Program-made: the position numbers and the translations under genes
DNA from: Deltaproteobacteria bacterium
Lineage (GTDB): Bacteria; Desulfobacterota; Desulfovibrionia; Desulfovibrionales; Desulfovibrionaceae
Assembly (NCBI GenBank): GCA_031285295.1
Contig: JAITWK010000025.1
Span: 2,967 to 66,966, forward strand
DNA: 64,000 bases
Reading direction: 5' to 3'
Shown: positions 26,318 through 45,360 of the stretch, piece after piece
Numbering within the stretch: the first letter of the stretch is position 1
Layout: every line of letters begins with the position of its first letter
The notes under the pieces: generated by a model
Told to the model about the DNA's origin: nothing
The model's input: the letters and a program-made list of their open reading frames with translations, nothing else
The model's database searches: none

Positions 26318-26779
26318 TTATACCGCATGTAACGGATCAAATCTCTCCGTTTGCACAGACGGTTCCGGGGTAATGTCGTCCATCGCCGCCTCGATAGCCC
26401 CCACAATGTACGCCATCAAATCACAGAGGAACACGGGATACACACCTTCTTCCGCGCCTGTAGCACCTGTCACGACAGGAAAATCCAGCCGGTAGCTGTA
26501 ATAGAGAATCCCATCTTCGGAATTTACACCAAAAACACCACCTGCCGTTCCTTCCCATAGATGGTTGCGTAGCATCAGAGCTTCAAGAGCGCCTTGTCCT
26601 GGTGCGCCCAGGGCGGCCTGGATGAACAGGGCACTATATTCGGCCTCGTAAAAAAAAGAGAAGCGTATGCCTTCAATTTCGGCCATCGCGCGACCGTTCT
26701 TATCCAAAATGCAAGCAGAATTTCCCGTGTATTCGCCAAGATACGCAACCTGTGCGGCGGCTTCATCGAAATAGTTCAT
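26318..26779 (-). CDS. T3SS class I (CesT/SycE-like) chaperone, second of a tandem pair
   Basis: 153 aa, small and acidic. MNYFDEAAAQVAYLGEY...FIQAALGAPG...LMLRNHLWEGTAGGVFGVNSEDGILYYSYRL follows the class I chaperone pattern. AAGAGGATGTT precedes ATG 26779. The 5' part of ORF 26318..27091 overlaps the neighbouring chaperone gene in another frame. Confidence 0.65.
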   Translation of the reverse strand: MNYFDEAAAQVAYLGEYTGNSACILDKNGRAMAEIEGIRFSFFYEAEYSALFIQAALGAPGQGALEALMLRNHLWEGTAGGVFGVNSEDGILYYSYRLDFPVVTGATGAEEGVYPVFLCDLMAYIVGAIEAAMDDITPEPSVQTERFDPLHAV

Positions 26780-26789
26780 AACATCCTCT

Positions 26790-27224
26790 TTAAACCCATA
26801 CTGCGGCGGCGGAAATGGTTTCTTTCGGGGCAAGGCGGCTCTGCCAGTACTGCGCCAGTCCGGCCTGCTGCGCGATCTTTTCAATGAATCCCTGTGCGAC
26901 TTCCCGATCCGGCGAAAATCGACGGGAAAGGCAAAGCAGACCGCTTTCCGCATCCAGTCCCAGAATGCCGCCGCCTGTCCCTGCCCAGGCATAGTTTCCC
27001 TGCATAAAATCGCACAGGATTTCCTCGCGTTTCGCATCCGCCGGCAGTGCGCCGATACAGGCGCAGGAGACCAGTTCCTCAGTTTCTTCACTGAAGTTGA
27101 AGGTGAACAGGGAACCCAGAATTTCGGCGGACACAGCGCCCTCCATGCCGAGATGGAGGGCAGGAGTCGCCATATGGTCGGATAAGGCCTTCAACAGTGT
27201 ATTGGTATGTTCTCTGGCAGTCAC
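26790..27224 (-). CDS. T3SS class I (CesT/SycE-like) chaperone
   Basis: 144 aa. LLKALSDHMATPALHL...LVSCACIGALPADAKREEILCDFMQGNYAWAGTGGGILGLDAESGLLCLSRRF follows the typical chaperone pattern (IG.LP, N..W....G..LGLD...G.L.L). Confidence 0.7.
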   Translation of the reverse strand: MTAREHTNTLLKALSDHMATPALHLGMEGAVSAEILGSLFTFNFSEETEELVSCACIGALPADAKREEILCDFMQGNYAWAGTGGGILGLDAESGLLCLSRRFSPDREVAQGFIEKIAQQAGLAQYWQSRLAPKETISAAAVWV

Positions 27225-29350: not shown

Positions 29351-29485
29351 TAGGGGGCATCGTGTTGCCGTACAAGGGGCAGAGAGCACCCGGTATGAAC
29401 GTCAGCCTATAGGCAAGGCTTGCGTAGTCGGCAGTTAGACTGATGCGCGGATATCATCGGCAACAAAGTGGACAGGCTGTAACGC

Positions 29486-30835
29486 TCAAAACGTGAACGC
29501 CAGGCCAAGCGTCAGAAGATGTTGATCATAGGTATAGAGATCAGAGCTGGAGTTGTTGTTCGTATACTGCCAGCCCATCTCAAGCTGGACGCTCTCGGCA
29601 ATCTGTTTGATAACCATTGCGGACGCCCGCCATTGCGTATCTTTCCGCTTTGCATCGTCAAGAATTGTGGCTCCGCCTTTATAATCTTCGTTATGCCATG
29701 CGCCGCTGAGAATAAGTTCCGTTTCCCATGGCAGGTTCAGAAAGAGAAAAACGCCCGGTTCAATCCCGGAAAAGCTATACCGACGTTCATCGGTAGCACT
29801 CATATAACCCTTAACGCCGGCCATCAGGCTGTGCTTCGCCTCACCGAAAAACCAACGAGCATACGGGCCACCCCAGGCGTATGTGCCGCTGCGGTCTCTG
29901 ACCGCAATGTCCTCGCGGTGCTCAATGCCACCTTGTCCGATAAGATGCAGATTGTCCCGTGCGGCAAAGACCAATGATGCTTCGCTTCCATACAGAGCCA
30001 CGGATTTTTCCTCATTTTCCAGCAACAGTTCCGTTTTTAGGCGGACTTCAGCCATAAGAGAATTCTCAAGATAACGCAGACCAACGGCAGCTCTGCCGAA
30101 GGTCATATCCCGGCGCGGCGTAGTTTCATTGTACCAGCGCTGATATCCGGCCACATCACCCACCAGCCACCAGGGCGAATCCGCCGAGGCTCGCCAGCCC
30201 ATATCAATCACGCCATGCAGGTAGCTGCCCATTGACTCCCGCTCGGAACTCTCCCGGTCAAGATAGATAGGCAGTCTGCCAACCATAACGTCGCGCCCGG
30301 CGGGGCCGGTGGTCATATTGCTGTCGTAGATCATACCGCCCGCAAGGCGTCCTTTGACTCTGAAGCTATCGACCCGCTGTTCCATACTCGCAAGCGCCTT
30401 GCCCATATCGCCTTCGGCAATGGAAGGATCAAGCCGTTTCGCCTCGGCCAGTTCCGCTTTTGCCGCTTCATTCTGTCCCATGGTCAGCAGCAAATGGGCG
30501 AGTTCCAGGCGCAGTATGGCATTCTCCGGCAAAGTTTCGATAAGACGTTCGTAAGCCATGCGGGAATGGTTGTATTTCCCGGCGAGCTTGGCGGAACGCG
30601 CCAAAGCCAGGTTGACCTCGAAATCATCCGGGGTTTCGCGCAACAGGTTCAGATACAGCGCGAAGGCTCCGGCATGATCCCCGGACTGCATCAAAGATGC
30701 GGCGTCTGCCTTGCCGGAAGACAGGGATGCCGCTACCGCCGCGCTGGCAGAAAAAGACCAGAGCGGCGGCAGCAGGGTGATAGTCAGAAACAGAACCAGA
30801 ACGGCATGGCGGAAGAGTGGCATGGTATTCTTCAT
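29486..30835 (-). CDS. outer-membrane protein with N-terminal TPR and C-terminal beta-barrel, Slam/DUF560-like (type XI secretion candidate)
   Basis: 449 aa. Signal peptide, then TPR-like helices (GAFALYLNLLRETPDDFEVNLALARSA..., MGQNEAAKAELAEAKRLDP). About 290 aa of alternating beta-strand pattern follows (GGMIYDSNMTTGP...). It ends in the OMP-type LTLGLAFTF. Confidence 0.5.
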   Translation of the reverse strand: MKNTMPLFRHAVLVLFLTITLLPPLWSFSASAAVAASLSSGKADAASLMQSGDHAGAFALYLNLLRETPDDFEVNLALARSAKLAGKYNHSRMAYERLIETLPENAILRLELAHLLLTMGQNEAAKAELAEAKRLDPSIAEGDMGKALASMEQRVDSFRVKGRLAGGMIYDSNMTTGPAGRDVMVGRLPIYLDRESSERESMGSYLHGVIDMGWRASADSPWWLVGDVAGYQRWYNETTPRRDMTFGRAAVGLRYLENSLMAEVRLKTELLLENEEKSVALYGSEASLVFAARDNLHLIGQGGIEHREDIAVRDRSGTYAWGGPYARWFFGEAKHSLMAGVKGYMSATDERRYSFSGIEPGVFLFLNLPWETELILSGAWHNEDYKGGATILDDAKRKDTQWRASAMVIKQIAESVQLEMGWQYTNNNSSSDLYTYDQHLLTLGLAFTF

Positions 30836-30837
30836 GG

Positions 30838-32043
30838 TTATTGTTTAACACCGTGTCCGCTGCCGCTGCCGGAACTACCACCCACTGCGCCTGAATAATT
30901 GAGATTCATATCCCTGCCGTTCGTTTTTCCTGTCACGTTCAGATGATCACCAGATTGGCCCAGAGGAGCTTCCACACCCAAGTCCACCAAAGGGTCATTC
31001 GGAAGAGCCGTAAAGCTGAAGTTCCCCCCTTTGTCCAGCGTCGCGATATTGCCGCTTCCACTGACACTGAAGGCCAGGTTCGCCAGCCCCCCATCATCAA
31101 TCTGCATGTCAACAGAATTGATCGTAGGTGTATTTGCGAGATCCGCAATGCCTATGCTGAAACTGCCGGTTCCGGGGTTGCCGCCGAAATTTGCGCTCAG
31201 CGTGCCCGCATAGGTTCCGCTGAACGATGCCACCTGCTGCAAGTCGGCTCCGGGCTTTGCTATGCCCGTTCCACCGGAACCCGGATCCAGCACAACATGA
31301 TCATCCTGCGGAATAAACGGTGCTTCCGGCACTTCCACCTGCGCAAGATCCAGAGGAAGCGTTGTCGTTTCCTGTGCATCAGCAATTTCGCCCACAGAGA
31401 GAAAGCCCTGTTCCGGGCCGTCTGTTGCTCCCTTACGGAAAAGCAGCGTGGTGCCGGGTATACCCATGGGATATGCCTGACCAGTCAGCTTGTCGCGGAT
31501 GTAGAGGGAGTTGGGTGAAGAGGACTGCACCAGGATAACCTTGGTAGCGTCCGCAATCTTTTCCACAATGACCTCGGTTCCTCTGATACCTACCTGTACC
31601 TCAGAGGTTTCCACACTCATGGCGCTGGGATCACCTTCGGTTATTCTGCCGCTGATCAGACGGGTCACGCCCTTGGCAAGATCCAGATTCAGCGCATTTT
31701 TCACGCTCCCGCTCTCGGAATAGATATATTCAGTGATGGTCGCCTGGGAATCCGGGGCCAGCATCAGCACGGAATCATCCAGAAACAGAACGTTGAGCCT
31801 GCCGACCGGGCTGGTGTTCAGCGTATCGCCGGAAAACACCGGACTTTTTCCGGCCAGCGGTTCCTGCGTTGCTGCCCGGTCAGCCCAGGCTTGTTTACGG
31901 GCGGCGATAACATTACCCGCAGTTTCCACGCCAAGAGCGGGGCTGACCGCAAACACGGCGATCAAAACCGCGAAAAGCGGTGCGGTAAAAAAGGGACACT
32001 GCCATAAGGGGCGGGTTACGCATTGCATGGCATCCTCCATCAT
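30838..32043 (-). CDS. secreted FecR-domain protein with a Gly-rich beta C-terminal domain
   Basis: Signal peptide (LFAVLIAVFAVSPALG). The FecR-like part includes VFSGDTLNTSPVGRLNVLFLDDSVLMLAPDSQATI and VGIRGTEVIV. The C-terminal part reads FSGTYAGTLSANFGGNPGTGSFSIGI...LAFSVSGSG...FSFTAL...LNVTGK. The gap to the Slam-like gene is 2 nt (stop at 30838, next start at 30835). Confidence 0.6.
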   Translation of the reverse strand: MMEDAMQCVTRPLWQCPFFTAPLFAVLIAVFAVSPALGVETAGNVIAARKQAWADRAATQEPLAGKSPVFSGDTLNTSPVGRLNVLFLDDSVLMLAPDSQATITEYIYSESGSVKNALNLDLAKGVTRLISGRITEGDPSAMSVETSEVQVGIRGTEVIVEKIADATKVILVQSSSPNSLYIRDKLTGQAYPMGIPGTTLLFRKGATDGPEQGFLSVGEIADAQETTTLPLDLAQVEVPEAPFIPQDDHVVLDPGSGGTGIAKPGADLQQVASFSGTYAGTLSANFGGNPGTGSFSIGIADLANTPTINSVDMQIDDGGLANLAFSVSGSGNIATLDKGGNFSFTALPNDPLVDLGVEAPLGQSGDHLNVTGKTNGRDMNLNYSGAVGGSSGSGSGHGVKQ

Positions 32044-32062
32044 TCGTAAATTGCTCAGGTTG

Positions 32063-32878
32063 TCAGCGCGGGGGCGCGATTACATAGTGCTTTGTCAACA
32101 CCAGCAGCAGCACCGGGGGGTCAAAGCCCAATCTGGCAGCCGTAGCTGTATTCAGTGAAAACAGGGGCGGCAGATTCGGAGTGAAAGTTGCATCTTCCAT
32201 GCCAGAGCCTTCCTGCATAAGAAAAGCGGCCAGTTCCCGATTCAGGCGCTCACCGTTACCGGCCCACGGTGCTATAAGCGCACCATGTTCCGTAGCGGTA
32301 TGGTCGGTGGCACTGATGGGCATGATGCCCCGGCTGAGCAAAAGTTCCAGCAATTCCGCAGAATTCTGATTGTCCGGCGCAAAGCAAGCGGAGCCATCAA
32401 GCAACAACGCGTCTATTTCGTCGAAAAACAAGGAATCTACGGCTTCGCGGCATCCAGCGGCATCTGCCTGCTGCAAATCCGTATAAGTAAAGAGTGTAAA
32501 CCCGGAACTGCCTGCCCCGGAGGAGTATAGTTTTGATGCGGCAACTTTGTTGGCGGCATCCAGCAACAGCGTCGAAATACCTTGCTCTTCGGCAGGGGCT
32601 GATTCCGGCGCTTTGATGCTGCCAAGGCGCGAGAACTGCGTGACCTCGTGCAAGGTTAGCACGAGGTTGATCCAGACTTCCTTGTTTTCCCGCAAGGCAC
32701 CGGGGATGCCGTTGAAGGAGGCAGACGGGCTTTGCCCGTCGCGGGCACAGGGGGGCGCCGGGGGGGGAGTCCCCCCGATATGATCCGAAGGCGCGGCTAA
32801 ACAAGAATGCCGTGCGTCCAGAAGGAGGAAGACGACGCATGACAGGCATATGAAAATGACAGCAAAGAGGGTTCGCAT
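32063..32878 (-). CDS. periplasmic protein, ABC_sub_bind/YfiR-like C-terminus (weak)
   Basis: Signal peptide MRTLFAVIFICLSCVVFLLL. The C-terminal FSLNTATAARLGFDPPVLLLVLTKHYVI resembles the end of uncharacterised ABC-type substrate-binding proteins. Confidence 0.4.
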   Translation of the reverse strand: MRTLFAVIFICLSCVVFLLLDARHSCLAAPSDHIGGTPPPAPPCARDGQSPSASFNGIPGALRENKEVWINLVLTLHEVTQFSRLGSIKAPESAPAEEQGISTLLLDAANKVAASKLYSSGAGSSGFTLFTYTDLQQADAAGCREAVDSLFFDEIDALLLDGSACFAPDNQNSAELLELLLSRGIMPISATDHTATEHGALIAPWAGNGERLNRELAAFLMQEGSGMEDATFTPNLPPLFSLNTATAARLGFDPPVLLLVLTKHYVIAPPR

Positions 32879-32884: not shown

Positions 32885-32905
32885 GGGTATGCAATTTGCA
32901 TTCCC
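32885..32905. promoter_or_regulatory. 21-bp near-perfect palindrome giving sigma-54-like GG-N10-GC on both strands
   Basis: GGGTATGCAATTTGCATTCCC, with 9 of 10 arm positions pairing. The plus strand gives GG(32886-7)...TTTGCA(32895-32900). The minus strand gives GGAATGCAAATTGCA. It lies in the 56-bp divergent spacer. Confidence 0.45.
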
Positions 32906-32934
32906 GGAAAAGATATAAACGAGGGGAAAAACAT

Positions 32935-33264
32935 ATGGATATAACTGTCTCGCAAGATGGCCGCTTCACGCTTGTTGCCTTACGCGGCGTTCTCGATGCC
33001 CTTACCGCGCCAGAGCTTGAGGAAAAAAATCAGCAAATTGTTGATAACGGCGCAACCATTGTCATTCTTGATCTTTCAGCCATGGAGTTCATCAGTTCAG
33101 CGGGTCTGCGTGTGTTTCTATCGCTGGCCAAAGCGCTGCGAAAAACGGGAGGAGAAATTCGTTTTGCAGGCTTGCAGGAGGCCATACGCGAAGTGTTCGC
33201 CATTTCCGGCTTTACAAAAATGTTCGCCGTTTTTCCTGATGCTGCTACAGCGGCCAAGGATTAG
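32935..33264 (+). CDS. STAS-domain anti-sigma-factor antagonist (SpoIIAA/RsbV/BtrV-like)
   Basis: MDITVSQDGRFTLVALRGVLDALTAPELEE...LDLSAMEFISSAGLRVFL carries the conserved phosphorylatable Ser context. Confidence 0.88.
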   Translation: MDITVSQDGRFTLVALRGVLDALTAPELEEKNQQIVDNGATIVILDLSAMEFISSAGLRVFLSLAKALRKTGGEIRFAGLQEAIREVFAISGFTKMFAVFPDAATAAKD

Positions 33265-33282
33265 CCTCATAAGGGGGAGCGA

Positions 33283-33771
33283 GTGCAAACGCTTTCATGC
33301 ATAACCACAGCGGAAGACATCCGCCTGGTGGAAAACTCAATCCTTGCCATTGCCGATGAGCGGGCGGTCGATTCGCTTTCCCGTGCCCGGATGCAACTGG
33401 TTCTTGATGAGATGCTTACCAATATCCGTTTCCACAGTTACCCGGAAGGTCCGGGCTCTATTCATATCATTATCTATCCGCAGGTCGGTGACGGAGACTT
33501 CATTCTCCATTGTGTCATCCAGGATTGGGGGCCTGAGTTCAATCCCCTGGTCGATAGCCCAAAGCCAGAATTGTGGGAAAATATTGAAGAAAGGCCCATC
33601 GGTGGTCTGGGACTACATCTGGTTCACAATATGCGCTGCGGTCTCAGATATGAGCGGGTACGGGAAGGTGCGCCATCTGCGGGCCGGAACGAGCTTACAC
33701 TCAGCTTTCCCCTGCGCTGCGGGCCGGGGGGATTACCGGAGAAATTCACTCCGCCGGGTAGCTCCTCCTGA
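33283..33771 (+). CDS. anti-sigma-factor-type Ser/Thr kinase (RsbW/SpoIIAB/BtrW-like, HATPase_c)
   Basis: N-box LVLDEMLTNIRFHSY, G1 IQDWGPEFNP and G2 RPIGGLGLHLV. GTG start preceded by GGGGGAG. Confidence 0.85.
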   Translation: MQTLSCITTAEDIRLVENSILAIADERAVDSLSRARMQLVLDEMLTNIRFHSYPEGPGSIHIIIYPQVGDGDFILHCVIQDWGPEFNPLVDSPKPELWENIEERPIGGLGLHLVHNMRCGLRYERVREGAPSAGRNELTLSFPLRCGPGGLPEKFTPPGSSS

Positions 33772-35747
33772 TGCTGCGCTCCATAAGAACCCGATCTATC
33801 AGAACCAGACTGGCCTTTGCTGGCGCTATTCTGGTTCTTTTGACTGCCGGAAGTCTTATGTGGTTCGCGCACAAGGACACCGTTACCGCCTTGCGTACCC
33901 TAGAGCGCCAAGGGCTCAACAATGTGATCTATCTTCTGGAACGCGAGCTGACCGCCGCGCATAGTGACGCCCTGAAGGCCAAAATCACGGCTGTGGAAAA
34001 TATAAAAACCATGCTCCGCCAGACGGGGGAGGCGGCATGCGCCATTCTGGGCGAAACCGCCGACATGGAAGAATCTCAAAGACGTGAGTTACTCTCCCTC
34101 TGGGCGGATACTCCGGCTGTTCCGGATCTTCATATCCGTTTTTTTCAGATCGATGAGGACGCAGAGGGGTTACACCCATCGTGGCCTCGGGGGGCTACGG
34201 GGGGTGCAGCCCCTCGGCATGAATACAAGGCTCTGCCCGAACCAGCACAAAAAGCCATACCATCCCTTCTGGCAGGCAGCGCCGGTGAATTCATTCCTGA
34301 TGGTGAAGCTCTGGCCTGGATAACCAAACATGACAACATGGTTGTGCTGTGTTCCTACTCTCTCAAAGATGCGGTTGACGCGGCGAAAGCAAATCTTGCG
34401 GTTGTGGCGGAGCGTTTCAAAGAATTATTGCGGCAGGTTGACATACAGGAAACCGGGTTCGCCGCCGTACTGGATGCTTCCGGCCGTATTGTGGCAGGGC
34501 CTGAGCATGCGGTCATTCCGGACAAACTGTGTGAAACACTTCTCGCTGGAACATTTTCCGGCGCAGCGCGGCGCGTCATGGTTCTCCGGGAGGAAGGTGA
34601 AAGCGATCAGGCCAAAAGTGCATCACCTAGCGAAACCCTTTATCTTCTCGGCTATTTTCGTCCGCTGCAATGGCATATCGTGCTGTCCGCCCCTTTGGAT
34701 GAATTGGAAGCTCCCGCCTACGCGCTTGTGGACGGGCAACTGCGAATAACCTTTGCCGTGCTAGCGGCCGGACTCCTGCTGGGCTTTATCATCGCAGCCC
34801 GCATCGCAAAGCCGATCCGCCGTTTGGCAAACCTTGCCAGAGAGTTGCCGGAGCAGGACATTTTAAGTCTTGATACTGCCGCTTTGACCAGGAAACTGCC
34901 CTTACGGCGCAAGGATGAGATCGGCGAACTGGCTCAGGCGTTTGGGCACATGGCTAAAGAATTGCAAACAAACGTCACACGTTTGGTCGAATCCACAGCC
35001 GTGCGCCAACGCATGGAAAAAGAGCTGCAAGTTGCCCGCGACATACAGTATGGCATTCTGCCAACGGTTTTTCCTGTAGGTACAGCGGTTGATCTGTATG
35101 CCGCCATGCGAACCGCCAGAGAAGTTGGCGGGGATCTCTATGACTTTTTCTTCCTCGATGAGCGCCGTCTCTGCTTCGCCATCGGCGATGTGTCGGACAA
35201 GAGTATTCCGGCGGCACTCTTTATGAGCATGACCGTGACCCTGCTCCGGGTCGCCATGCGTGACGAAGGCCTGTCGCCGGAAGCGGCTATGGCCCGCGTG
35301 AATGACGCCTTGGCGGCTGACAACCCCCGCATCATGTTTGTCACTCTGTGCATCGGCGTGCTTGATATGGTTTCAGGCGAGGTAGTGTACAGCAGTGCCG
35401 GGCATATGCCCCCTGTGCTGATAGGCGAGAGCGGCGCATGTTCCCTTCCGCGCTCCGGTGATATGGTGGCCGGTGTTTTTGAGGGAGACAGCTTTGTCAG
35501 CATACGGCACGTTATGCAGCCCGGCGAGACTCTTTTTCTCTATACCGACGGCGTTTCCGAGGCCATGAATGCCGCGAGGGAACAATATGGAGAGAAACGC
35601 CTTTTAGCGCATCTGACGGATTGCTACGGCATACCCTCTACCGAAACGGTCGGTTCCGTCTTCCGAACCGTGGATGAACACGCGGGCGACGAAGAGCAGT
35701 CCGATGATATAGCCATCCTGACAATACGCTACCTTGGTAAACGCTGA
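33771..35747 (+). CDS. membrane sensor PP2C (SpoIIE/RsbU/BtrU-like) phosphatase with a periplasmic domain and HAMP
   Basis: TM1 (LAFAGAILVLLTAGSLMWFA), about 290 aa extracytoplasmic, then TM2. HAMP region (RRKDEIGELAQAFGHMAKEL). The PP2C part includes ARDIQYGILP, REVGGDLYDFFFLDERRLCFAIGDVSDKSIPAALFMS, YSSAGHMPP, LYTDGVSEA and DDIAILTIR. Confidence 0.9.
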   Translation: MLRSIRTRSIRTRLAFAGAILVLLTAGSLMWFAHKDTVTALRTLERQGLNNVIYLLERELTAAHSDALKAKITAVENIKTMLRQTGEAACAILGETADMEESQRRELLSLWADTPAVPDLHIRFFQIDEDAEGLHPSWPRGATGGAAPRHEYKALPEPAQKAIPSLLAGSAGEFIPDGEALAWITKHDNMVVLCSYSLKDAVDAAKANLAVVAERFKELLRQVDIQETGFAAVLDASGRIVAGPEHAVIPDKLCETLLAGTFSGAARRVMVLREEGESDQAKSASPSETLYLLGYFRPLQWHIVLSAPLDELEAPAYALVDGQLRITFAVLAAGLLLGFIIAARIAKPIRRLANLARELPEQDILSLDTAALTRKLPLRRKDEIGELAQAFGHMAKELQTNVTRLVESTAVRQRMEKELQVARDIQYGILPTVFPVGTAVDLYAAMRTAREVGGDLYDFFFLDERRLCFAIGDVSDKSIPAALFMSMTVTLLRVAMRDEGLSPEAAMARVNDALAADNPRIMFVTLCIGVLDMVSGEVVYSSAGHMPPVLIGESGACSLPRSGDMVAGVFEGDSFVSIRHVMQPGETLFLYTDGVSEAMNAAREQYGEKRLLAHLTDCYGIPSTETVGSVFRTVDEHAGDEEQSDDIAILTIRYLGKR

Positions 35748-35865: not shown

Positions 35866-36002
35866 TGTAAATATAGTTGCCGGGTGTGCAAAGCGGCATG
35901 CCTACTAAGTGTGCATAATCCCCCGACCTCTTTCCCGTCCATTTTTCTCCTCAAGTTCGCCTGAATCGCTGTTTTTCTTTATGTGGCAACGAAAAATTCG
36001 GG

Positions 36003-36018
36003 TGGCACAGTAAGTGCT
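36003..36018 (+). promoter_or_regulatory. sigma-54 (-24/-12) promoter of the main T3SS gene train
   Basis: TGGCACagtaaGTGCT with exact GG/GC spacing, 45 nt upstream of ATG 36064. Confidence 0.75.
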
Positions 36019-36063
36019 ATTCGTCACTGTAAACGACACCGAAACCATTCGGGGAGGCAGACA

Positions 36064-36351
36064 ATGACAGAATCTTCCGGGTTTGAAAAAACACTGGCGC
36101 GGCACAAAGAAGACCTCGCACGCATCAAGACGGTTCTTGATACACAGCGTGCCACGCTGGAAAGCATTAAAGCGGAGTTCGACAAACTCGGCATCAATAC
36201 AGCACAGCTCCCCCCCATCGAGCAACTGCCCAAGGAATATCAGGAACAGTTTCTGGGTTTCACACGGGAACTGAGAGAGATTGATGAAATTCTGACTCCC
36301 CCCAGACCCGCAAGCAAACCGATGAAACTCCGCCGCCGGGCGATGATTTAA
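36064..36351 (+). CDS. LcrG/PcrG-like small coiled-coil protein (95 aa)
   Basis: GGGGAGGCAGACA precedes ATG 36064. It has the same length as my recollection of Yersinia LcrG (95 aa) and a similar basic tail (ours ...PRPASKPMKLRRRAMI, LcrG ...KRPRKPTMMRGQII). It sits directly upstream of the LcrH-like chaperone gene. Confidence 0.55.
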   Translation: MTESSGFEKTLARHKEDLARIKTVLDTQRATLESIKAEFDKLGINTAQLPPIEQLPKEYQEQFLGFTRELREIDEILTPPRPASKPMKLRRRAMI

Positions 36352-36361
36352 GGAGAATGGC

Positions 36362-36829
36362 ATGGTTGATACAACATCCGAAGAACGCCTTGCCGCTATC
36401 GTTGCCAAAGTTCTGCGCGGAGAAACCGTTCTGCGTGCCGAACTGGGCATGGATAATAACGATATGGAAGCACTCTATTCCGTTACCTACAACGTCTATA
36501 TGGCCGGAAAATACGATGAGGCCATGCGTTTGTTCGGTGTGCTCAGTCTGCTGGATCCCACCGACTACCGCTTTGTGTTCGGGGGAGCCTCCTGTTTGCA
36601 GATGCTCGGCGAGTACATGATGGCAAGCATGTATTTTCAGCTCGCGGGCGGACTGGATGAAGAAGCACCCGCACCCATGCTGCATACGGCTGAATGCCTG
36701 CTGGCCCTGAAGGACAGGGACGGGGCGAAAACAGCCTTGGCTCTGGTATTGGAACGCGCGGGAGACAAAGCCGAATACGCTCCATTACGCAAAAAAGCCG
36801 AAGTAATGCTGGAGAATGTATCCGCATAG
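36362..36829 (+). CDS. T3SS class II (TPR) translocator chaperone, LcrH/SycD/IpgC family
   Basis: 155 aa. DMEALYSVTYNVYMAGKYDEAMRLFGVLSLLDPTDYRFVFGGASCLQMLGEYMMASMYF is the hallmark TPR chaperone sequence. Confidence 0.88.
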   Translation: MVDTTSEERLAAIVAKVLRGETVLRAELGMDNNDMEALYSVTYNVYMAGKYDEAMRLFGVLSLLDPTDYRFVFGGASCLQMLGEYMMASMYFQLAGGLDEEAPAPMLHTAECLLALKDRDGAKTALALVLERAGDKAEYAPLRKKAEVMLENVSA

Positions 36830-36853
36830 AGCAAATTACGAATGAGGTATGCC

Positions 36854-37888
36854 ATGTCCACTATGAATGTACATTCGAATACTCCCGTGACCGGCACTCA
36901 GGCCGCATTGGCTGAGCAGATAGCTGCCACGACTAAAAATATTCTTGCAAACGATATGGGCGGTGTCGGCGGAACAGGCAGCAGGCCTTTCCTCGGCAAA
37001 CCCTCGCTGCCAGCCCCCACCCTGTCCGCCACATCCATGATGGTTGCCCTGACGGCACTGAATTCCAGGATTGCCGGGGAGAGCATCACTTTCGGCGAGA
37101 GCGCCATTGAAGGTATGCGCAATGACATCAGAGAGCAGGCGGCCAAACGGACGGAGCAGCTCCAGCAGTATTTCGACAACATGAATAAGGTCAACAACAC
37201 CCAAAAATGCGGTCTTTTCGGCGCTATCGGGCTGTTTTTCTCCAACCTCTTCAAAGGCGACCCGATGGCCGGTTTGGAGATCATCAAAAACAACATCGGC
37301 AATATCGTGAAGGATGTTGTCATGATGGGGGCGCTCGCGCTCTCCGCCACCGTCGCCATCGCGGCAACCGTTGCCACGGTGGGGGCAGCTGCACCCAGTA
37401 TCGCCCTTGTAGCCGGAGGAGCCACAATAGTTCTGGCGGCCATGGTTTTTTCCGATCCTGCAATCACAGGTGCCATTACCAACATGATGCCGGAAAACAT
37501 TCGTATGGGTGTTTCCATCGCCATGGCCGTTATCACGGTCATCGCCTCCATAGTGGGCGGCGTCATGATGGCTGTGGGCAGCGGCGGTACCTCCGCTCTC
37601 ACAAATATCAGCGCCGTTGTCAGCTCGATTTCTACCCTTGTCGGCGCGGCCTCGACCCTTGAACAGGGAGTAAAAGGATTCATCCAAAGCGGGTATCAGA
37701 CAGAAAGCATGCTCCAGCAGGCGGAGATGGACAAGACTGACGCCCTGATGGCGGATATCAAATCCGCTCTTGAGCGCAACCAGACAGATCTCAGGGTCAT
37801 CTTCGATGCCTTTGCAAAAATGGTCGAAAGCACGCACGGTCTGATCCAGACTTATGGTCAGAACCTGACCCGCGCGGCAAGCGTTTGA
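36854..37888 (+). CDS. major hydrophobic translocator (YopB/IpaB/EspD-like, SctE class)
   Basis: 344 aa. An N-terminal coiled coil is followed by hydrophobic hairpin segments (CGLFGAIGLFFSNLF, VVMMGALALSATVAIAATVATVGAAAPSIALVAGGATIVLAAMVF, GVSIAMAVITVIASIVGGVMMAV). It follows the class II chaperone gene. Confidence 0.75.
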   Translation: MSTMNVHSNTPVTGTQAALAEQIAATTKNILANDMGGVGGTGSRPFLGKPSLPAPTLSATSMMVALTALNSRIAGESITFGESAIEGMRNDIREQAAKRTEQLQQYFDNMNKVNNTQKCGLFGAIGLFFSNLFKGDPMAGLEIIKNNIGNIVKDVVMMGALALSATVAIAATVATVGAAAPSIALVAGGATIVLAAMVFSDPAITGAITNMMPENIRMGVSIAMAVITVIASIVGGVMMAVGSGGTSALTNISAVVSSISTLVGAASTLEQGVKGFIQSGYQTESMLQQAEMDKTDALMADIKSALERNQTDLRVIFDAFAKMVESTHGLIQTYGQNLTRAASV

Positions 37889-37899
37889 GGAGAATGATC

Positions 37900-38946
37900 A
37901 TGAGCGAAATGCGCATCAACTCCCCCATACCTACCGCCGCCGAATCCATAGCCAGTGATTCCGAGAAGGCTAACGTCCAGAAAAACACGGCAATGGCTGC
38001 CGATCTTGCTGGCGTGAAAGAATCCGTTGTTCCTCTGGCAACACCCAATCTGAGCACCCCCGCAACCAACGCGGAAGTACAGGCCGCGTTGGCTAAACTG
38101 GAAGGCACAGCGCCGGAAATCCAGCAAGCCGTTTCCCAGTGCATCCAGAATATGCAGATACTCTCCCAGAACCAGGCCGGGAATGTATTGAACGCGAAGA
38201 CCCTGGATGGTCTTGTGAATTCCGTAATCACAGCGGCCAAAGAGAACCGTACCGCGCCCTTTTACGAATTGCACGCCTACCTCTCGGACGGGGTGGACGA
38301 TATGATCCGCGCCACGCCGGAAAACGCGCAACTGAAAATCATAGGCGAATCTGCCCATGCTTTGCTGGATCTTTTGCAAAAGCCGGAAGACAGCCGGGAC
38401 ATGGCAAAGACTATCGCCGGACATCTGGAAAAGCTGGCAGATGCCTCCCTGTGCGCAGCAAATGCGTCCGCAGAAGAGAAGTTCGCCGCAGCCTTTGCTG
38501 CCACGCTCCACAATGTGCTCAGTGTGGCTGCTGAGGCAAACCTTCTGGGCGATGCTCAGAAACAGATACTGGCGGATCTGGCCGCAAAACTCCCGCAGCT
38601 TGCAAAATTACAGGATGCCGCTGCCTTCTCCGCCAACGCGTTAGCCATCGCGAACACAGGGCTTTTGATGATTATGGCGAACCAGGTTCAGGCGGAACTC
38701 AATAATCGTATTGAACTTGTTGAAGCGGAAGCGGAACTCGCCGAAACCCTGAAGAAGAAAGAAGCGGCGAGTCGCCGGACAAAAGAAGAAATAACCGAAG
38801 GGCAGATTGAAACCAACAGGGTTCCCACGGAGTCCTCCTCGGTCTTTGTCAGTGCCCTTGGGAAGAGCGGGGATGAAGGATTCAGAATGATTAACGATCT
38901 TATCCTCAAGCATCAGGCGAACAGCGCAAGTCGCGGCCCGGTGTAA
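37900..38946 (+). CDS. secreted-protein candidate (348 aa, helical) inserted between the two translocator genes
   Basis: GAGGAG lies 8 nt upstream of ATG 37900. No signal peptide. Long helical Ala/Leu/Gln-rich sequence with one weakly hydrophobic stretch (ALAIANTGLLMIMANQV) and a charged coiled coil (ELVEAEAELAETLKKKEAASRR). Confidence 0.5.
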   Translation: MSEMRINSPIPTAAESIASDSEKANVQKNTAMAADLAGVKESVVPLATPNLSTPATNAEVQAALAKLEGTAPEIQQAVSQCIQNMQILSQNQAGNVLNAKTLDGLVNSVITAAKENRTAPFYELHAYLSDGVDDMIRATPENAQLKIIGESAHALLDLLQKPEDSRDMAKTIAGHLEKLADASLCAANASAEEKFAAAFAATLHNVLSVAAEANLLGDAQKQILADLAAKLPQLAKLQDAAAFSANALAIANTGLLMIMANQVQAELNNRIELVEAEAELAETLKKKEAASRRTKEEITEGQIETNRVPTESSSVFVSALGKSGDEGFRMINDLILKHQANSASRGPV

Positions 38947-38975
38947 TGATATCATTTTCTCTCAAGGAGATAAGT

Positions 38976-39710
38976 ATGACGACAATAGACGGCATCCAGG
39001 CATCGGCCCAAGTCAATTTTACGGAAGTTACTCCTCTTAACAAAACCAATCTTTTCGCCCACGACGATGCGCTTGGCGTGGGCACAACCAGCGCAGGACT
39101 TACTTCCGGGATGCCAGCGCCCCTGCTGACCTCCAAGCCAGACATGATGAAGGTTATGGCCGCCTTTGAGGATCTGATCATCCTCATGAGCAAACTGGCG
39201 AAAGAAACCCAGTCGGCGGAGCGGGAAAACGAAGTGGCCCTGCTTGCCCAAAAGGTCAACAGCCTGCTGGGATCGGCCAAGGAAAAAGCCGAAGGCGCGC
39301 AGACCATGCGAAACATGGCCATTGTTTCTCTGGCAATCTCCATCATCAACGCCGGAATCACCATTGGGCTCAGCGGCCTTTCCATTGGCGGAATCATGAA
39401 GGGAGAGGTCGGTAAACTGGCAGGGGACAAACTGATGGAAGCCATCAGGGTTTTCAACACTTCTGTAAGCTCGGCCAGTCAGGCGGGTTCTTCCGTTTCC
39501 AGCTTCGTCAACACACTTGGTCAGACGGAAAGCCAGTTCGCTCAGGCCAAGGCCGACGAAATGCAGGCTCAGGCCGAGGAAGCCGGTATGCGGGCACAGA
39601 AGTCCCAGACCATGCAGCAGGATATGCGCGACCTTCTGAACAAGATGGTCGAACTGCTCAACTCTTTTTATGCGGCGCAGGACAAGATCGCCGGAGCCGC
39701 TTCCCATTAG
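38976..39710 (+). CDS. minor hydrophobic translocator (YopD/IpaC/EspB-like, SctB class)
   Basis: 244 aa. AAGGAGATAAGT precedes ATG 38976. A single central TM (MAIVSLAISIINAGITIGLSGLSIGGI) and a C-terminal amphipathic coiled coil. Confidence 0.65.
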   Translation: MTTIDGIQASAQVNFTEVTPLNKTNLFAHDDALGVGTTSAGLTSGMPAPLLTSKPDMMKVMAAFEDLIILMSKLAKETQSAERENEVALLAQKVNSLLGSAKEKAEGAQTMRNMAIVSLAISIINAGITIGLSGLSIGGIMKGEVGKLAGDKLMEAIRVFNTSVSSASQAGSSVSSFVNTLGQTESQFAQAKADEMQAQAEEAGMRAQKSQTMQQDMRDLLNKMVELLNSFYAAQDKIAGAASH

Positions 39711-39754
39711 GAAACGCTGTCTTTTTCCGTTTGGCGGCGTTGCTTGCTTTTTCC

Positions 39755-39800
39755 CTAAAAAACTTCGCGCCTTGCCAAACGAAAAAACTCAGCGTTTCCG
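39755..39800 (+). repeat. about 45-nt intergenic element, copy R2 (core GCCAAACGAAAAAACTCAGCGTTTCC)
   Basis: See R1. In addition, GGAAACGCTG (39710-39719) and CAGCGTTTCC (39790-39799) form a 10-bp inverted repeat bracketing the spacer. Confidence 0.8.
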
Positions 39801-39821
39801 AAAAGAAATAGGAGATAGACC

Positions 39822-40391
39822 ATGACAACCATAGCAGCGCAAACAAGTTATACGCCCCTGTTCAATGCCGATGGAAACGTCACCGGCATCCAGCTTACCG
39901 ATGCTTCAGGGGCGGTACTGGAAACCCGTGAAATTATCGCGCTGAATACCTTAAGCGCGGGTATTGCCGCCGTCAAAGCCCAGGATAATACCCTGGCCAT
40001 GCTCTGGGGCCAGATGGAAGAGCAGACCACAGCTTTGAACGATATCAACGATATTCTGCAAACTCTGGGCAACGAGAAAAAATCCCTTCAGGACGACGCG
40101 GGTAAAACAGGTGCCAGCCTGGATGCTGATACTGTCGCCAAGCTGAAGGAACTTGCCGGGAAGCACGGTCTGCAACTTGGTGACATTGATCTTGGCAAGG
40201 AACTCAGCATCAGCGATCTCGAATCTCTGCAAAGCAATCTGGCCACCACTCAGTCTTCGGTGGGGGCGCTGAACGAGGATATGTCCCTGAAGCTGAACCA
40301 GGCCGCGAGCCAGCGTTCCGCCGTATTCACCCAGTTGCAGACCCTCTTGCAGACCATGATGCAGACGTTACAGCAGCTTTCCAGAGCATAG
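39822..40391 (+). CDS. secreted coiled-coil protein (189 aa), tip/filament candidate (EspA/Bsp22-like role)
   Basis: No signal peptide. Its C-terminal 57 aa are about 42% identical (24/57 by hand alignment) to the C-terminus of the next gene product. The Q/S/N/L-rich heptad termini are typical of polymerising T3SS substrates. Confidence 0.5.
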   Translation: MTTIAAQTSYTPLFNADGNVTGIQLTDASGAVLETREIIALNTLSAGIAAVKAQDNTLAMLWGQMEEQTTALNDINDILQTLGNEKKSLQDDAGKTGASLDADTVAKLKELAGKHGLQLGDIDLGKELSISDLESLQSNLATTQSSVGALNEDMSLKLNQAASQRSAVFTQLQTLLQTMMQTLQQLSRA

Positions 40392-40403
40392 GGAGGATAT
40401 TCC

Positions 40404-41477
40404 ATGTCAATGCAAGTACCCCCGTACACGTCGGCGGACAAGACTATCGCGGCGGACGGCTTTTTCTACGTCTACCAGGGCGAAGGCAAGCCGGAAGTAA
40501 AAATGACCTTCATGTCCCTGATGATAGAACTGGGCCTCTATTCCCTGCAAAACAGCCGGGCCGCCTTCAACAGCCAGTTCCAGCGGGCGCAGGAAAAGGT
40601 TGCATGCATGGAGGAGCTGAACGAACTGCTCCAGCAGGCCAATGCCATCAAGTCCACCTACGATGCCGAAGCCAAGGGGGACGCAACAACGGAAGCCGGG
40701 GATTTTTTTACGAAGCTCGCGGAGTTCAACCGTAAGTATCCCGGTCAGGCCGTGGCGTACAACTTGGATGAGATCGCGGTCGGAACAGTGGATACCACCG
40801 CTCTGGGGGAACAAATAGGCGCGCATGGCAAGGCAAAAAACGAGTACGAGGCTCTGCGGGAAGAGTATCAGACCTATATTTATAATGACTGGCTTGCTGA
40901 TGGAGATCATGGCGCAGCACGGACAAAAGACTTTAAGCAGAGGCTTGCCGAAATAAACGCCAAGTTGGAGGCCGGGGGGCTTAGCGGTCCAGAGACGAGT
41001 CATCTCAATCTTTTGAAACGAGTTCTGGAACTGCGGCTGGATGGCAAGGATTTGCCGGGACATGATCTGACAGCGATGGAAGCCTTGCGGGATGGGGCGG
41101 AGAAAAGCCGCGATGCCGAGGAAACTGCCCAGAACAATCTCACCAACCATCTGGCAGATTACGAAAAAGAGTATGCTCTGTTCAAGGAAGAAGGCAAAAC
41201 GCTGGAAGAATGGAAAGATTTTCTGAGCAACTCCGCAGGCAAGAATGCCTACAAAACCTTTGGCAGCGGTGAATATTTCATCAGCAATCAGGGCCTTCAG
41301 AGCCTGCTAAGCAACATGCAGACCGCCCAGTCCACCCTGAGTAGTGAAAATGAACAACAGAGTATGCGCACCAACCAGGCCATGAACCGTTCCTCAGGCT
41401 TTTTGCAACAGTTGCAGAACATGGTGCAGGCGGCCAAGGAATCGCTCCAGGCGGCGAGCAGGGCAGGGGGTGCCTGA
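40404..41477 (+). CDS. secreted coiled-coil protein (357 aa), needle-tip candidate (LcrV/IpaD-like role), paralogous termini with the 39822 gene
   Basis: GGGAGGATATTCC precedes the ATG. The C-terminus LQSLLSNMQTAQSTLSSENEQQSMRTNQAMNRSSGFLQQLQNMVQAAKESLQAASRA aligns with LESLQSNLATTQSSVGALNEDMSLKLNQAASQRSAVFTQLQTLLQTMMQTLQQLSRA. Confidence 0.5.
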   Translation: MSMQVPPYTSADKTIAADGFFYVYQGEGKPEVKMTFMSLMIELGLYSLQNSRAAFNSQFQRAQEKVACMEELNELLQQANAIKSTYDAEAKGDATTEAGDFFTKLAEFNRKYPGQAVAYNLDEIAVGTVDTTALGEQIGAHGKAKNEYEALREEYQTYIYNDWLADGDHGAARTKDFKQRLAEINAKLEAGGLSGPETSHLNLLKRVLELRLDGKDLPGHDLTAMEALRDGAEKSRDAEETAQNNLTNHLADYEKEYALFKEEGKTLEEWKDFLSNSAGKNAYKTFGSGEYFISNQGLQSLLSNMQTAQSTLSSENEQQSMRTNQAMNRSSGFLQQLQNMVQAAKESLQAASRAGGA

Positions 41478-41926
41478 TGACGGAAACCATGCTTGCCGAA
41501 CTGTGCCGCCGTATGGGGGGACGGTCAGTTCCATCCCCCGACTCCTTTGGCGGCTATGCTTTGCCCTTGTCCGATGGTTTTACCCCGGTCATTACACCGG
41601 GCCGTGATGGCGTGGGTTTTGCAGGAGAGATTCTGGAACTGCCAACTGCTGAACAGGATCGTGAAGCCCTGTGTCGGGAACTCCTGACTCTGTCGCTCGG
41701 CAGGACAGGTCAGGAATGCGAAGGATACCTTCCCCATATCACGGCGGAAGGAAACAAGCTCATCCTGCGGCAGATGTGCGGAGCATTTCTCGCAGTGGAC
41801 GATCTGGAAGCGGCCCTTGAGCGTTTCGTCAACCTGATGGAGAAATGGCGTTCCTTGGCCTTGCGGGAAAAAGGCCGGCAATCCTTCCGCTCAGGCGGGA
41901 GCCTACAGGGGATTATTATACCCTAA
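41477..41926 (+). CDS. T3SS class I chaperone at the yscB position (directly upstream of sctC)
   Basis: 149 aa. LAELCRRMGG...GYALPLSDGFTPVITPGRDGVGFAGEILELP...LCRELLTLSLGR...NKLILRQM...LEAALERFVNLMEKW follows the CesT/YscB-like pattern. Confidence 0.65.
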   Translation: MTETMLAELCRRMGGRSVPSPDSFGGYALPLSDGFTPVITPGRDGVGFAGEILELPTAEQDREALCRELLTLSLGRTGQECEGYLPHITAEGNKLILRQMCGAFLAVDDLEAALERFVNLMEKWRSLALREKGRQSFRSGGSLQGIIIP

Positions 41927-41935
41927 AGGAACTCT

Positions 41936-43777
41936 ATGGTTTTTACATTCTTACGCGCCGTACTCTTTTCGGCGCTACTCGTTTTGTTCATGGCGGCCGC
42001 ACCCGTGCAGGCCGCCCCTTTCGCGTTCACAGCCCAGAACGAACCCATGCCGGATTTCCTGTGTGCCTATGCGAACGCACAACAGAAAATCTGCTCTGTC
42101 AGTTCCGAGATCGGCGGCTCTGTTACTGGCAACCTGGAGTTCCGCACAGAAGACGCCTTTTTTGCCTTTCTTGAGCGCAGCCACGACATTGTGACCTATG
42201 TAGATGCGGAAACAATCTATTATTACGGCCGGTCGCAAATGGAGTCCGCAACGCTTCCTCTCTACCGCGTCAGTGTTTCCCAAATCAGCACGGCCTTGCG
42301 AGAAATGGAAGCCTATGACAGGCGTTATCCCCTGCGGCCAATCAGTAACGGGAAAATGTTGCGGATTACCGCGCCGCCAGCCTACATCGCTATCGTCACC
42401 CAGACCGTCGGCGACCTTGAAGCCAGCTTTACAGCCGCCAAAGGCACCCGTGTTTTTCGCCTGAAACACGCCTGGGCCGATGATATTGAGCTTAACTTCA
42501 TGAACCAGACAGTGAATATTCCCGGAGTGGCAACGCTTATCCGCCGTATCACAGCCGATGGGGGCGATGCCCCCGCTCCGGTCAGCGGCGGAGAGACAGG
42601 CGGTGCTGTAGAACGACTCAAGGGCACTGGCCTTGCGAGCAGAACCGGCACCCAGGAAGCTCCCCAAAGAGCTTCCCCGGCAACCTCCAGAACAGCCGGG
42701 CCGGGGAGCGGTTCACGCAATAATGTAGTCAGCGGCGCACGCATTGTCGCGGATCCGCGCCTCAACGCCGTTATCGTCTGGGATGATGAAGAGCTGATGC
42801 CGCTTTATGAAACTCTCGTGACAGAGCTGGATCAGCCCGTATCTCTCGTGGAGATCCGGGCGGCCATCGTGGATATATCCGTTGAGCGAATGCAGGAACT
42901 CGGTATCGCCTGGGATGTCGCGCGGCCCGTTGCCGGGAGTTCCGGCTTTGGTGCCACGGGCGGAGCCAACGTGGGCGTGGACGATACCGCCGTGGATTTT
43001 GCGAGTAATATGGGCTACGGCCTCAACCTCACCACTTTGTATAGAAACGGACTTGATACTTTTATGGCCAGAGTGCGTGCCCTGGAACAGGACGGAGACG
43101 CCTCCGTGCTCTCCCGTCCGGCTGTGCTGACTCTGGACAATATCCAGGCATCGCTTGAGGTCACCAACACATATTACATTGAGGTTGCCGGGCAGGAAGA
43201 AGTCGATCTTTTTGACGTTACCTATGGAACCATTCTGCGCGTAACGCCACACGTTATCAAAGACGAGGATTCCGGCGCGGTCTCCATCAAGCTTACCGTG
43301 CATGTGGAAGACGGCGGCAGCCAGGCGGCGGCGTCCGGCACTGGCATCAGTTACCCCATTGTCTCCAAAACTCAGGTCAACACTCAGGCACTGGTGGGAG
43401 ACGGTCAGGCGCTAATCGTGGGCGGGCACTACTATGAAACTTCCACAAGCGGCGATAACGGCATTCCCGTTCTCAAAAGCATCCCGCTGCTGGGCGGCCT
43501 GTTCAAAACACAGAGCGATCAATACCGCAAACAGGAACGGCTGTTTATCATCGCTCCCCGGCTGGTGGATCCGGCTAAACTACAGCAGGAGGCGCAGCAG
43601 TACGATGAGTTGTTCGCGCGTACCATGACCACGCAGCCGGTGGTTCGCATCGAGCGCAGCACCGGCGGATGCGCAAGGCAGCGCCGGGTGGCTGTAGAGC
43701 CAGTACCCGTTCCGGCACCAGTATCTGCCCCTTCCGCCGGGCCGCTATCCGGGCCGGGATCCGAGGATATCCAATGA
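41936..43777 (+). CDS. sctC: T3SS outer-membrane secretin
   Basis: 613 aa with a signal peptide. The secretin domain includes ADPRLNAVIVWDDEELMP, SLVEIRAAIVDI, VLSRPAVLTLDNIQASLEV, ILRVTPHVI, VNTQALVGDGQALIVGG and GIPVLKSIPLLGGLFK. Confidence 0.95.
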   Translation: MVFTFLRAVLFSALLVLFMAAAPVQAAPFAFTAQNEPMPDFLCAYANAQQKICSVSSEIGGSVTGNLEFRTEDAFFAFLERSHDIVTYVDAETIYYYGRSQMESATLPLYRVSVSQISTALREMEAYDRRYPLRPISNGKMLRITAPPAYIAIVTQTVGDLEASFTAAKGTRVFRLKHAWADDIELNFMNQTVNIPGVATLIRRITADGGDAPAPVSGGETGGAVERLKGTGLASRTGTQEAPQRASPATSRTAGPGSGSRNNVVSGARIVADPRLNAVIVWDDEELMPLYETLVTELDQPVSLVEIRAAIVDISVERMQELGIAWDVARPVAGSSGFGATGGANVGVDDTAVDFASNMGYGLNLTTLYRNGLDTFMARVRALEQDGDASVLSRPAVLTLDNIQASLEVTNTYYIEVAGQEEVDLFDVTYGTILRVTPHVIKDEDSGAVSIKLTVHVEDGGSQAAASGTGISYPIVSKTQVNTQALVGDGQALIVGGHYYETSTSGDNGIPVLKSIPLLGGLFKTQSDQYRKQERLFIIAPRLVDPAKLQQEAQQYDELFARTMTTQPVVRIERSTGGCARQRRVAVEPVPVPAPVSAPSAGPLSGPGSEDIQ

Positions 43778-45342: not shown

Positions 45343-45360
45343 CCACAAAGGAGGCATACG

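Follow-up and report, generated by a model that had tools for sequence, protein, structure and literature searches.

Putative sigma-54 promoters directly ahead of type III secretion operons in an uncultured Desulfovibrio-like bacterium

[quoted passage not shown] Three elements of the -24/-12 type lie directly ahead of the structural and effector operons of this T3SS, and a gene for an enhancer-binding protein (EBP) homologous to DVUA0100 of Desulfovibrio vulgaris lies in the same block. Judging from sequence, we think it likely that the three elements are genuine sigma-54 promoters and that the local DVUA0100-family EBP switches on the three corresponding units directly, with no intermediate sigma factor. 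Composition, position, orientation, conservation across species and the presence of an EBP of the cognate type all support sigma-54 promoters directly ahead of the T3SS operons, as an earlier note on this DNA had proposed. The window is a further example of a regulon type already predicted for the Desulfovibrionaceae, one that has so far been described by computation only.

Results

Sigma-54-type sites in the T3SS block

The sites in question are the following:

36003-36018 (+): sigma-54 -24/-12 site TGGCACAGTAAGTGCT, inside a 316-nt non-coding gap, heading the putative operon that runs from a gene of 95 amino acids (aa) to sctS
29350-29335 (-): sigma-54 site TGGCATATTCCTTGCT, non-coding and co-oriented with the module that it heads, a putative effector (686 aa) and CesT
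53839-53854 (+): sigma-54 site TGGCACGCTTCCTGCT, heading a cassette of CesT and a 468-aa protein between sctS and sctT
23038-23053 (+): fourth sigma-54 promoter candidate, intergenic, 131 nt ahead of the ATG of a LuxR/GerE-type regulator

All four carry GG and GC at the consensus spacing (TGGCAC-N5-TTGCW). The first three are those of the earlier note, which had them right in sequence, place, strand and spacing, and also in their closeness to start codons with a good Shine-Dalgarno sequence: 45 nt separate the end of the 36003 site (36018) from the ATG at 36064 (GGGGAGG), 38 nt the end of the 29350 site (29335) from the ATG at 29296 (AGGAGG), and 65 nt the end of the 53839 site (53854) from the ATG at 53920 (AAGGAG). 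The last of these sites begins 11 nt past the sctS stop codon. The list was incomplete, however, since it left out the strong intergenic site at 23038, which is probably a genuine sigma-54 promoter too.

The gene train behind the 36003 site likewise has the extent first described, 17.8 kb (36064-53827) with a largest gap of 111 nt, and terminator-like sites show no excess in it. The label 'LcrG-like' given to its first gene finds no support: 36064-36351 has no LcrG Pfam match even at E <= 1, resembles LcrG by position only, and its equivalent in plasmid pDV1 of D. vulgaris (Nitratidesulfovibrio vulgaris) Hildenborough is annotated as hypothetical. We refer to it as the small first gene of the translocator operon.

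Chance versus enrichment

Candidate sites were scored with a weight matrix built from 83 published sigma-54 promoters of D. vulgaris Hildenborough (Kazakov 2015, Additional file 6), the four T3SS promoters being omitted from the training set to avoid circularity. It supersedes a first matrix made from the Barrios consensus, and the conclusions are the same with both. The training promoters themselves (n = 83) have a median of 17.5 bits and a 10th percentile of 12.2. The best matches among the roughly 128,000 positions of the window are:

Rank 1: 53837, 19.8 bits, ahead of the CesT and 468-aa cassette
Rank 2: 29334, 19.7 bits, ahead of the 686-aa gene
Rank 3: 23036, 17.8 bits, ahead of the LuxR-type gene
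Rank 4: 55886, 16.1 bits, sctT codons 5-10
Rank 5: 36001, 15.3 bits, ahead of the 95-aa first gene

The earlier note had suggested a genome-wide weight-matrix scan as a measure of how unusual its three sites are; run on the window, the scan places them at ranks 1, 2 and 5 and reveals a strong enrichment. Across the window, 5 matches reach at least 15 bits where 0.96 are expected, and 4 of these 5 fall within the 4212 nt of co-oriented upstream non-coding DNA, where 0.02-0.03 would be expected (Poisson P ~5e-8). None of 3000 shuffles of the upstream regions yielded four such matches. The distribution is bimodal: four of the 28 upstream regions peak at 15.3-19.8 bits, all four inside the T3SS block, and the next best reaches 10.2. 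A count with a loose consensus (TGGCACN6TGCW, at most one mismatch) gives 13 matches against 11.6 expected, that is, no enrichment.

Conservation across homologous loci

Orthologous loci (designated L followed by a number) were found through protein searches and exact look-up of the encoding contigs. The sequence of pDV1 was retrieved under its accession, this plasmid not being among the matches listed when plasmids were searched by tblastn with the EBP. A profile search of genome contigs with an alignment of the PP2C phosphatase found, among the matches listed, distant relatives only, and a metagenome scan with SctU found one distant locus.

Wherever a locus has the small first gene, a sigma-54 site stands ahead of that gene. 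This applies to the window, L081, L082, L084, L086, L087, L093 and pDV1 (eight loci, seven besides the window). The site lies 25-44 nt from the start codon in six of the other loci and 197 nt from it in L093, and ranks first to third per locus in all seven, as against fifth in the window. Between these loci the non-coding sequence around the site differs, and the gap ahead of the small gene measures anything from about 60 to more than 700 nt; their PP2C proteins have only 35-66% identity with that of the window. Its retention despite varying gaps and diverged PP2C genes marks the 36003 site as conserved among homologous loci. The end of the PP2C gene is only some 60-70 nt away from the small gene in L081 and L084. 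The pDV1 site, at 45293 of that sequence, corresponds to 36003 and is the published DVUA203 promoter CATGGCATACTTGCTGCTA.

For the 29335 and 53839 sites no such comparison is at hand, since the other loci have no strict orthologues of these effector modules. Sites comparable to 29335 do occur ahead of effector/CesT modules in L086 (at 4177; 15.9 bits with the first matrix) and, weaker, in L092 and L095. In L092 and L094, sctS and sctT are adjacent, and the CesT and 468-aa cassette of the window is therefore an insertion (53828-55874). This insertion opens with the best sigma-54 site of the window and closes with a hairpin (55832-55860), GC-rich and 12 pairs long, which lacks a T-tract on the + strand.

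The enhancer-binding protein and candidate binding sites

The EBP gene that the earlier note had placed in the same block is indeed there:

24962-26290 (+): sigma-54 EBP; Pfam Sigma54_activat (E = 7e-65), AAA_lid_14 and HTH_8

Over the AAA+ core its product has 46% identity with DVUA0100, and the two proteins have in common an N-terminal LAEAFGxMLVKVEAREF segment and a nearly identical helix-turn-helix (HTH). For DVUA0100, the published sites amount to a palindrome of 15 bp close to GCCAAC-N3-GTTGGC. With a matrix built from these sites, strong palindromes (15-21 bits) are seen in pDV1 and L082, 106-138 nt upstream of the promoter. Palindromes of this type also lie near sigma-54 sites in Mailhella (L013), Bilophila (L009) and Avidesulfovibrio (L008), being strong in the first two. 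At the three window promoters the candidates are as follows, P being the probability of a match this good within the 100-145 nt interval:

35867-35881: candidate EBP site, partial palindrome GTAAATATAGTTGCC, centre 130 nt upstream of the 36003 GG; 8.4 bits, P = 0.03
29459-29473: candidate EBP site GGCAACAAAGTGGAC, intergenic, centre 117 nt upstream of the 29350 GG; 9.0 bits, P = 0.024
53714-53728: weak candidate EBP site GTCAAGCTCGTGGCC, inside sctS, centre 119 nt upstream of the 53839 GG; 6.4 bits, P = 0.057

The joint P for palindromes at the three promoters is ~2e-4 to 9e-4. Upstream of the 23038 promoter there is no DVUA0100-type palindrome. The pairing of the window EBP with these sites is plausible, not established.

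This type of EBP, sigma-54 sites and matching palindromes are found together in pDV1, L082, L008, L009, L096 and the window, the association being clear in six loci; those of Avidesulfovibrio (L008) and Bilophila (L009) are T3SS loci that combine all three. L095 has the same EBP type with only a weak sigma-54 site (11.6 bits) and no palindrome, and the Mailhella locus L013 has palindrome and sigma-54 sites with no EBP gene within the stretch examined. In this Mailhella metagenome-assembled genome, two divergent sigma-54 sites (23.2 and 20.2 bits; L013 1916-2135) flank a GCCAACTTTTTTGGC palindrome, and the + strand site lies 29 nt ahead of an open reading frame of 372 aa, a layout that mirrors the divergent control region of pDV1.

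We hypothesize that sigma-54 RNA polymerase binds the GG/GC elements as a closed complex, that the EBP (24962-26290) binds the GCCAAC-N3-GTTGGC-like palindromes about 120 nt upstream, and that its ATP hydrolysis opens the promoters. Three units would be turned on in this way: (i), the 17.8-kb stretch from the small first gene to sctS; (ii), the effector and CesT module on the opposite strand; and (iii), the CesT and effector cassette, whose transcript would probably continue into sctT, sctU, sctW and sctV.

Discussion

Weighing the alternatives

Direct control of the T3SS by sigma-54 and the local EBP has several points against it. The -12 box of the 36003 site is GTGCT rather than TTGCT, conservation offers no test of the 29335 and 53839 sites, and no rpoN gene lies within the 64-kb window. 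All matrices and published comparison sites are computational predictions themselves. The candidate palindromes of the window are weak (6.4-9.0 bits) and partial, the interval in which they were scored was picked after pDV1 and L082 had been viewed, and at the expected distance L081, L084, L087 and L093 lack a palindrome altogether. The main doubt, however, is the loop of the EBP, which reads GVASGV instead of GAFTGA and has no Phe: the Phe of GAFTGA contacts sigma-54 in PspF and NtrC, and some EBP-like proteins that lack GAFTGA act with sigma-70. The promoters could thus be real while their neighbour is not their activator; a GVASGV protein that cannot engage sigma-54 would be a sigma-70-type activator, a repressor or an ATPase of some other role, and another EBP encoded elsewhere would drive the T3SS. 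Kazakov et al. in fact flagged the GVATGV that replaces GAFTGA in DVUA0100 as possibly interfering with sigma-54 binding (PMC4641369), and the weak palindromes of the window, their absence at 23038 and the four relatives without one would fit such a view. Against it, GVASGV or GVATGV is found in 114 of the 120 closest EBP homologues, which argues that the variant loop is under selection and not decaying; judged from these alignments, the Phe-less loop is a conserved trait of the EBP clade. The rest of the Sigma54_activat domain is intact, and this EBP type recurs beside sigma-54 sites and palindromes. The clade-wide loop and the recurrent co-occurrence argue that the EBP is functional, and we consider it unlikely that it is not the activator of these promoters.

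It is less probable still that the matches are fortuitous or non-functional, the T3SS genes being read instead from unrecognised promoters of the sigma-70 or another type, which the LuxR-type regulator might control, or by read-through of the STAS-RsbW-PP2C operon. The loose consensus is not enriched, equally good matches at 55888, 57585 and 50274 are demonstrably coding artefacts (see below), and read-through would be plausible in L081 and L084, given the short distance between the PP2C and small genes. An E. coli-type sigma-70 scan found no + strand match across 36000-55990 and none in the relevant gaps, although sigma-70 promoters of this lineage may escape a model of that type. What speaks most clearly against coincidence is the bimodal upstream enrichment and the retention of the 36003 site in eight loci across very different gap lengths. 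Least probable, in our view, is an HrpL-like logic in which the main target of the EBP and sigma-54 is the LuxR-type regulator (23185-24648), this regulator in turn activating some of the T3SS operons. A 17.8-bit site does precede this gene, which lies directly upstream of the EBP gene, but the machinery and effector operons carry sigma-54 sites of their own, which we rate equal or better, and the promoter of the LuxR gene lacks a DVUA0100-type palindrome. The gene is also missing beside the EBP of L095, the closest relative, and from the pDV1 stretch examined, so the system does not include it as a conserved component. Direct activation of the three units by the DVUA0100-type EBP thus remains the reading that we favour.

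Comparison with known systems

Kazakov et al. 2015 (BMC Genomics 16:919, PMC4641369) predicted direct sigma-54 control for the homologous T3SSs of D. vulgaris pDV1 and Miyazaki, of D. piger and of Lawsonia. In the literature searched we found no experimental test of this Desulfovibrionaceae regulon, and no mention of DVUA0100 beyond that study; the published DVUA0100 regulon is a computational prediction. The window resembles it in several respects: (i), the T3SSs are homologous (SctU is 47% identical) and share gene content; (ii), the EBPs are homologous (46% identical), with the GVA(S/T)GV loop, the N-terminal motif and the HTH in common; (iii), a sigma-54 promoter stands ahead of the same small first gene and of effector/CesT genes; (iv), GCCAAC-N3-GTTGGC-type sites lie upstream, those of the window being candidates only, much weaker and partial; and (v), a PP2C phosphatase is linked to the EBP. 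There are also a number of differences. A single control region serves two divergent operons in pDV1, with the EBP gene inside the sctW-to-sctU operon, whereas in the window the EBP gene stands separately, 8.8 kb from the PP2C gene, and an effector cassette splits sctR-S from sctT-U. Unlike pDV1, the window also has a full STAS-RsbW-PP2C module, the orfX-FecR-SlipAM genes and the LuxR-type regulator.

The best-known relative in regulatory logic is the HrpR/HrpS-HrpL cascade of Pseudomonas syringae (HrpS-HrpL in Erwinia, Dickeya and Pantoea), which likewise relies on sigma-54 and on EBPs without a receiver domain, encoded in the T3SS cluster. HrpS is itself controlled by the partner pair HrpV/HrpG, conceptually akin to a partner switch. 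There, the EBPs act on the single hrpL promoter, and HrpL, a sigma factor of the extracytoplasmic function (ECF) type, reads the hrp boxes of the T3SS operons (PMC5263251). In contrast, the block studied here has no sigma gene, and it is the machinery and effector genes that have -24/-12 elements ahead of them. The annotation of the window with Pfam, from which all gene identities below are also taken, contains no HrpL-type ECF sigma gene that could be a sigma-54 target in the cluster and no other sigma factor gene of the sigma-70 family; its sole sigma-type match is a weak Sigma70_r4_2 that overlaps the GerE HTH of the LuxR-type protein. The contrast with HrpL that the earlier note had drawn from the lack of a visible sigma gene is therefore valid; the direct architecture itself is no novelty, Kazakov et al. 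2015 having predicted it.

Promoters of this kind at T3SS genes are not confined to Desulfovibrionaceae: in the CtcC/sigma-54 regulon of Chlamydia trachomatis they lie directly ahead of T3SS effector genes, with support from RNA-seq and reporters (Soules et al. 2020, PMC7482065). The window is alike in having putative sigma-54 promoters directly upstream of effector and related genes. CtcC, however, is a two-component response regulator without a DNA-binding domain, from an unrelated EBP clade, and for the chlamydial T3SS structural operons sigma-70-like promoters were reported (Hefty and Stephens 2007, as cited in PMC7482065). The Bsc T3SS of Bordetella and Achromobacter (BtrS; BtrU/BtrV/BtrW) is similar in another respect, its T3SS being accompanied by STAS and RsbW-like genes, and the Cache/HAMP/PP2C protein of the window is 32-33% identical to Achromobacter BtrU-like proteins over nearly the full length. 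Where Bordetella has the ECF sigma factor BtrS, the window has no sigma gene. We also found no GVA(S/T)GV EBP at up to 10 kb from the Achromobacter btrU loci examined.

A possible partner switch acting on the EBP

The STAS, RsbW-like and PP2C genes form a module at 32896-35747 (+). Genes for partner switching accompany EBPs of this clade in pDV1, L082 and L096 as well, a PP2C gene adjoining the EBP gene in the first two. L096 (7270-13571, on the Desulfovibrio sp. JY chromosome CP082962) has a same-clade EBP and no T3SS genes within 10 kb. One flank of this EBP gene carries a fused HATPase_c_2-HAMP-SpoIIE (RsbW-HAMP-PP2C) gene and the other SpoIIE (PP2C) and STAS genes; the sigma-54 sites there reach 18.7 and 14.0 bits, with palindromes nearby. 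Because it is present in this T3SS-free locus, the link between the EBP clade and partner switching is independent of the T3SS. This gene linkage suggests, without proving it, that the partner-switching module gates EBPs of the DVUA0100 type; we found nothing in the literature searched that combines partner switching with EBP control. We tentatively propose, as a possibility that we ourselves hold to be rather doubtful, that the Phe-less GVA(S/T)GV EBPs still drive sigma-54 promoters and are gated by a linked STAS/RsbW-like/PP2C switch instead of a receiver, GAF or PAS domain, whether or not a T3SS is present. If true, the partner switch would act on an EBP rather than on a sigma factor, and an extracytoplasmic Cache/HAMP signal would be coupled to direct sigma-54 transcription of a whole injectisome.

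The module is divergent from a second group, orfX-FecR-like-TPR/SlipAM-like (29486-32878, -), and this arrangement is kept in L081, L082, L084, L087, L088 and L093; in L088 the stretch examined has no T3SS genes. A FecR-like protein is present in the group, yet no ECF sigma gene is visible.

The window, then, is an independent example, from an uncultured Desulfovibrio-like bacterium, of T3SS structural and effector operons that are apparently read directly by sigma-54 polymerase. Conservation in Bilophila, Mailhella, Avidesulfovibrio and several metagenome-assembled lineages, beyond the genera of 2015, strengthens the prediction of Kazakov et al., and the window and its relatives supply clean promoter/EBP pairs for experiment. 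Less explored points are how a Phe-less EBP engages sigma-54 and whether the linked partner-switching module controls it. Desulfovibrionaceae such as Bilophila and Lawsonia are host-associated, which gives biological relevance to the signal behind the activation of their injectisomes.

Look-alikes inside genes

Several good matches were rejected as promoters. The one at 55888-55903 (+; 16.1 bits) covers sctT codons 5-10 (DELARPLL) and is absent from relatives; the SctT N-terminus is conserved in L092 and L094, so we read this match as coding sequence. At 57585-57600 (+) the match encodes VPLARxLL of SctU, and the same codons give the same match in L087, L091, L092 and L093. A match at this 3' end of sctU occurs in 5 of the 6 loci where sctW follows sctU, and is absent from pDV1 and L082, where the EBP gene follows. 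We treat it as a by-product of coding, although it may serve in both roles. The match at 50274 encodes VELLLQIG of SctN, and those at 45518 and 41608, considered as internal promoters, are not conserved in relatives.

Palindromes inside genes call for the same caution. A perfect one, GGCAACTTTGTTGGC at 32540-32554, was rejected as an EBP site on the grounds that it encodes the conserved ANKV(G/A) of orfX. It sits 336 nt upstream of a sigma-54-like match at 32189-32204 (-), both inside orfX and ahead of the FecR-like gene, and the pairing recurs in L082, L084 and L086. The sigma-54-like match falls on a Gly-x3-Ala found at the same place in these three loci; both elements thus lie on conserved residues (ANKV and G-x3-A), and coding constraint may explain them both. 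The recurrent PP2C-gene palindrome GCCAAAGAAGTTGGC was also discarded as a strong EBP site, as it encodes a conserved AKEVGG. In the form GCCA(A/G)AGAAGTTGGC, it is found at 35115-35129 of the window and in the PP2C genes of L081, L084, L086, L087 and L093, where it encodes A(K/R)EVG. The rare Val codon GTT occurs in it in exactly the six loci that have the PP2C gene upstream of the small-gene promoter, while ten other PP2C genes with the A(K/R)EVG motif have GTG, GTC or GTA instead. This codon choice hints at a constraint on the DNA itself: the palindrome could be an activator site embedded in coding sequence, or could reflect shared ancestry. A further palindrome-like sequence, GGCAACTTTGTGGTC, occurs twice inside sctV (60305-60319 and 60323-60337), 18 nt apart.

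Layout of the window

The gene content, in order along the window, is as follows:

1-19400: housekeeping genes panC, transketolase, pheST and rplT
22494-22568 (-) and 22721-22796 (+): two divergent tRNA-Val genes, anticodons GAC and TAC, respectively
23185-24648 (+): LuxR/GerE-type regulator, 487 aa
24962-26290 (+): sigma-54 EBP
26318-27091 (-): CesT chaperone
27236-29296 (-): putative effector, 686 aa
29486-30835 (-): TPR/SlipAM-like gene
30838-32043 (-): FecR-like gene
32063-32878 (-): orfX
32896-33264 (+): STAS
33283-33771 (+): RsbW-like kinase
33771-35747 (+): Cache/HAMP/PP2C phosphatase
36064-36351 (+): 95-aa first gene of the translocator operon
36064-53827 (+): gene train of the 95-aa gene, an LcrH-type chaperone, translocator-sized proteins and sctC, D, E, F, J, K, L, N, O, P, Q, R and S
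53920-54393 (+): CesT gene
54415-55821 (+): gene for the 468-aa protein
After 55821, to 62083: sctT, sctU, sctW, sycN, yscX, a TPR gene and sctV, in this order

An Rfam scan of the promoter gaps found no RNA element. The T3SS block is bordered on its left by the divergent tRNA-Val pair, which may be the boundary of an island; the GC content does not change sharply there. Outside the block, Rfam identifies a DUF3800-VI RNA motif (45.5 bits) at 11650-11705 (-), which overlaps the 5' end of the gene for a DUF3800 protein (10940-11683).

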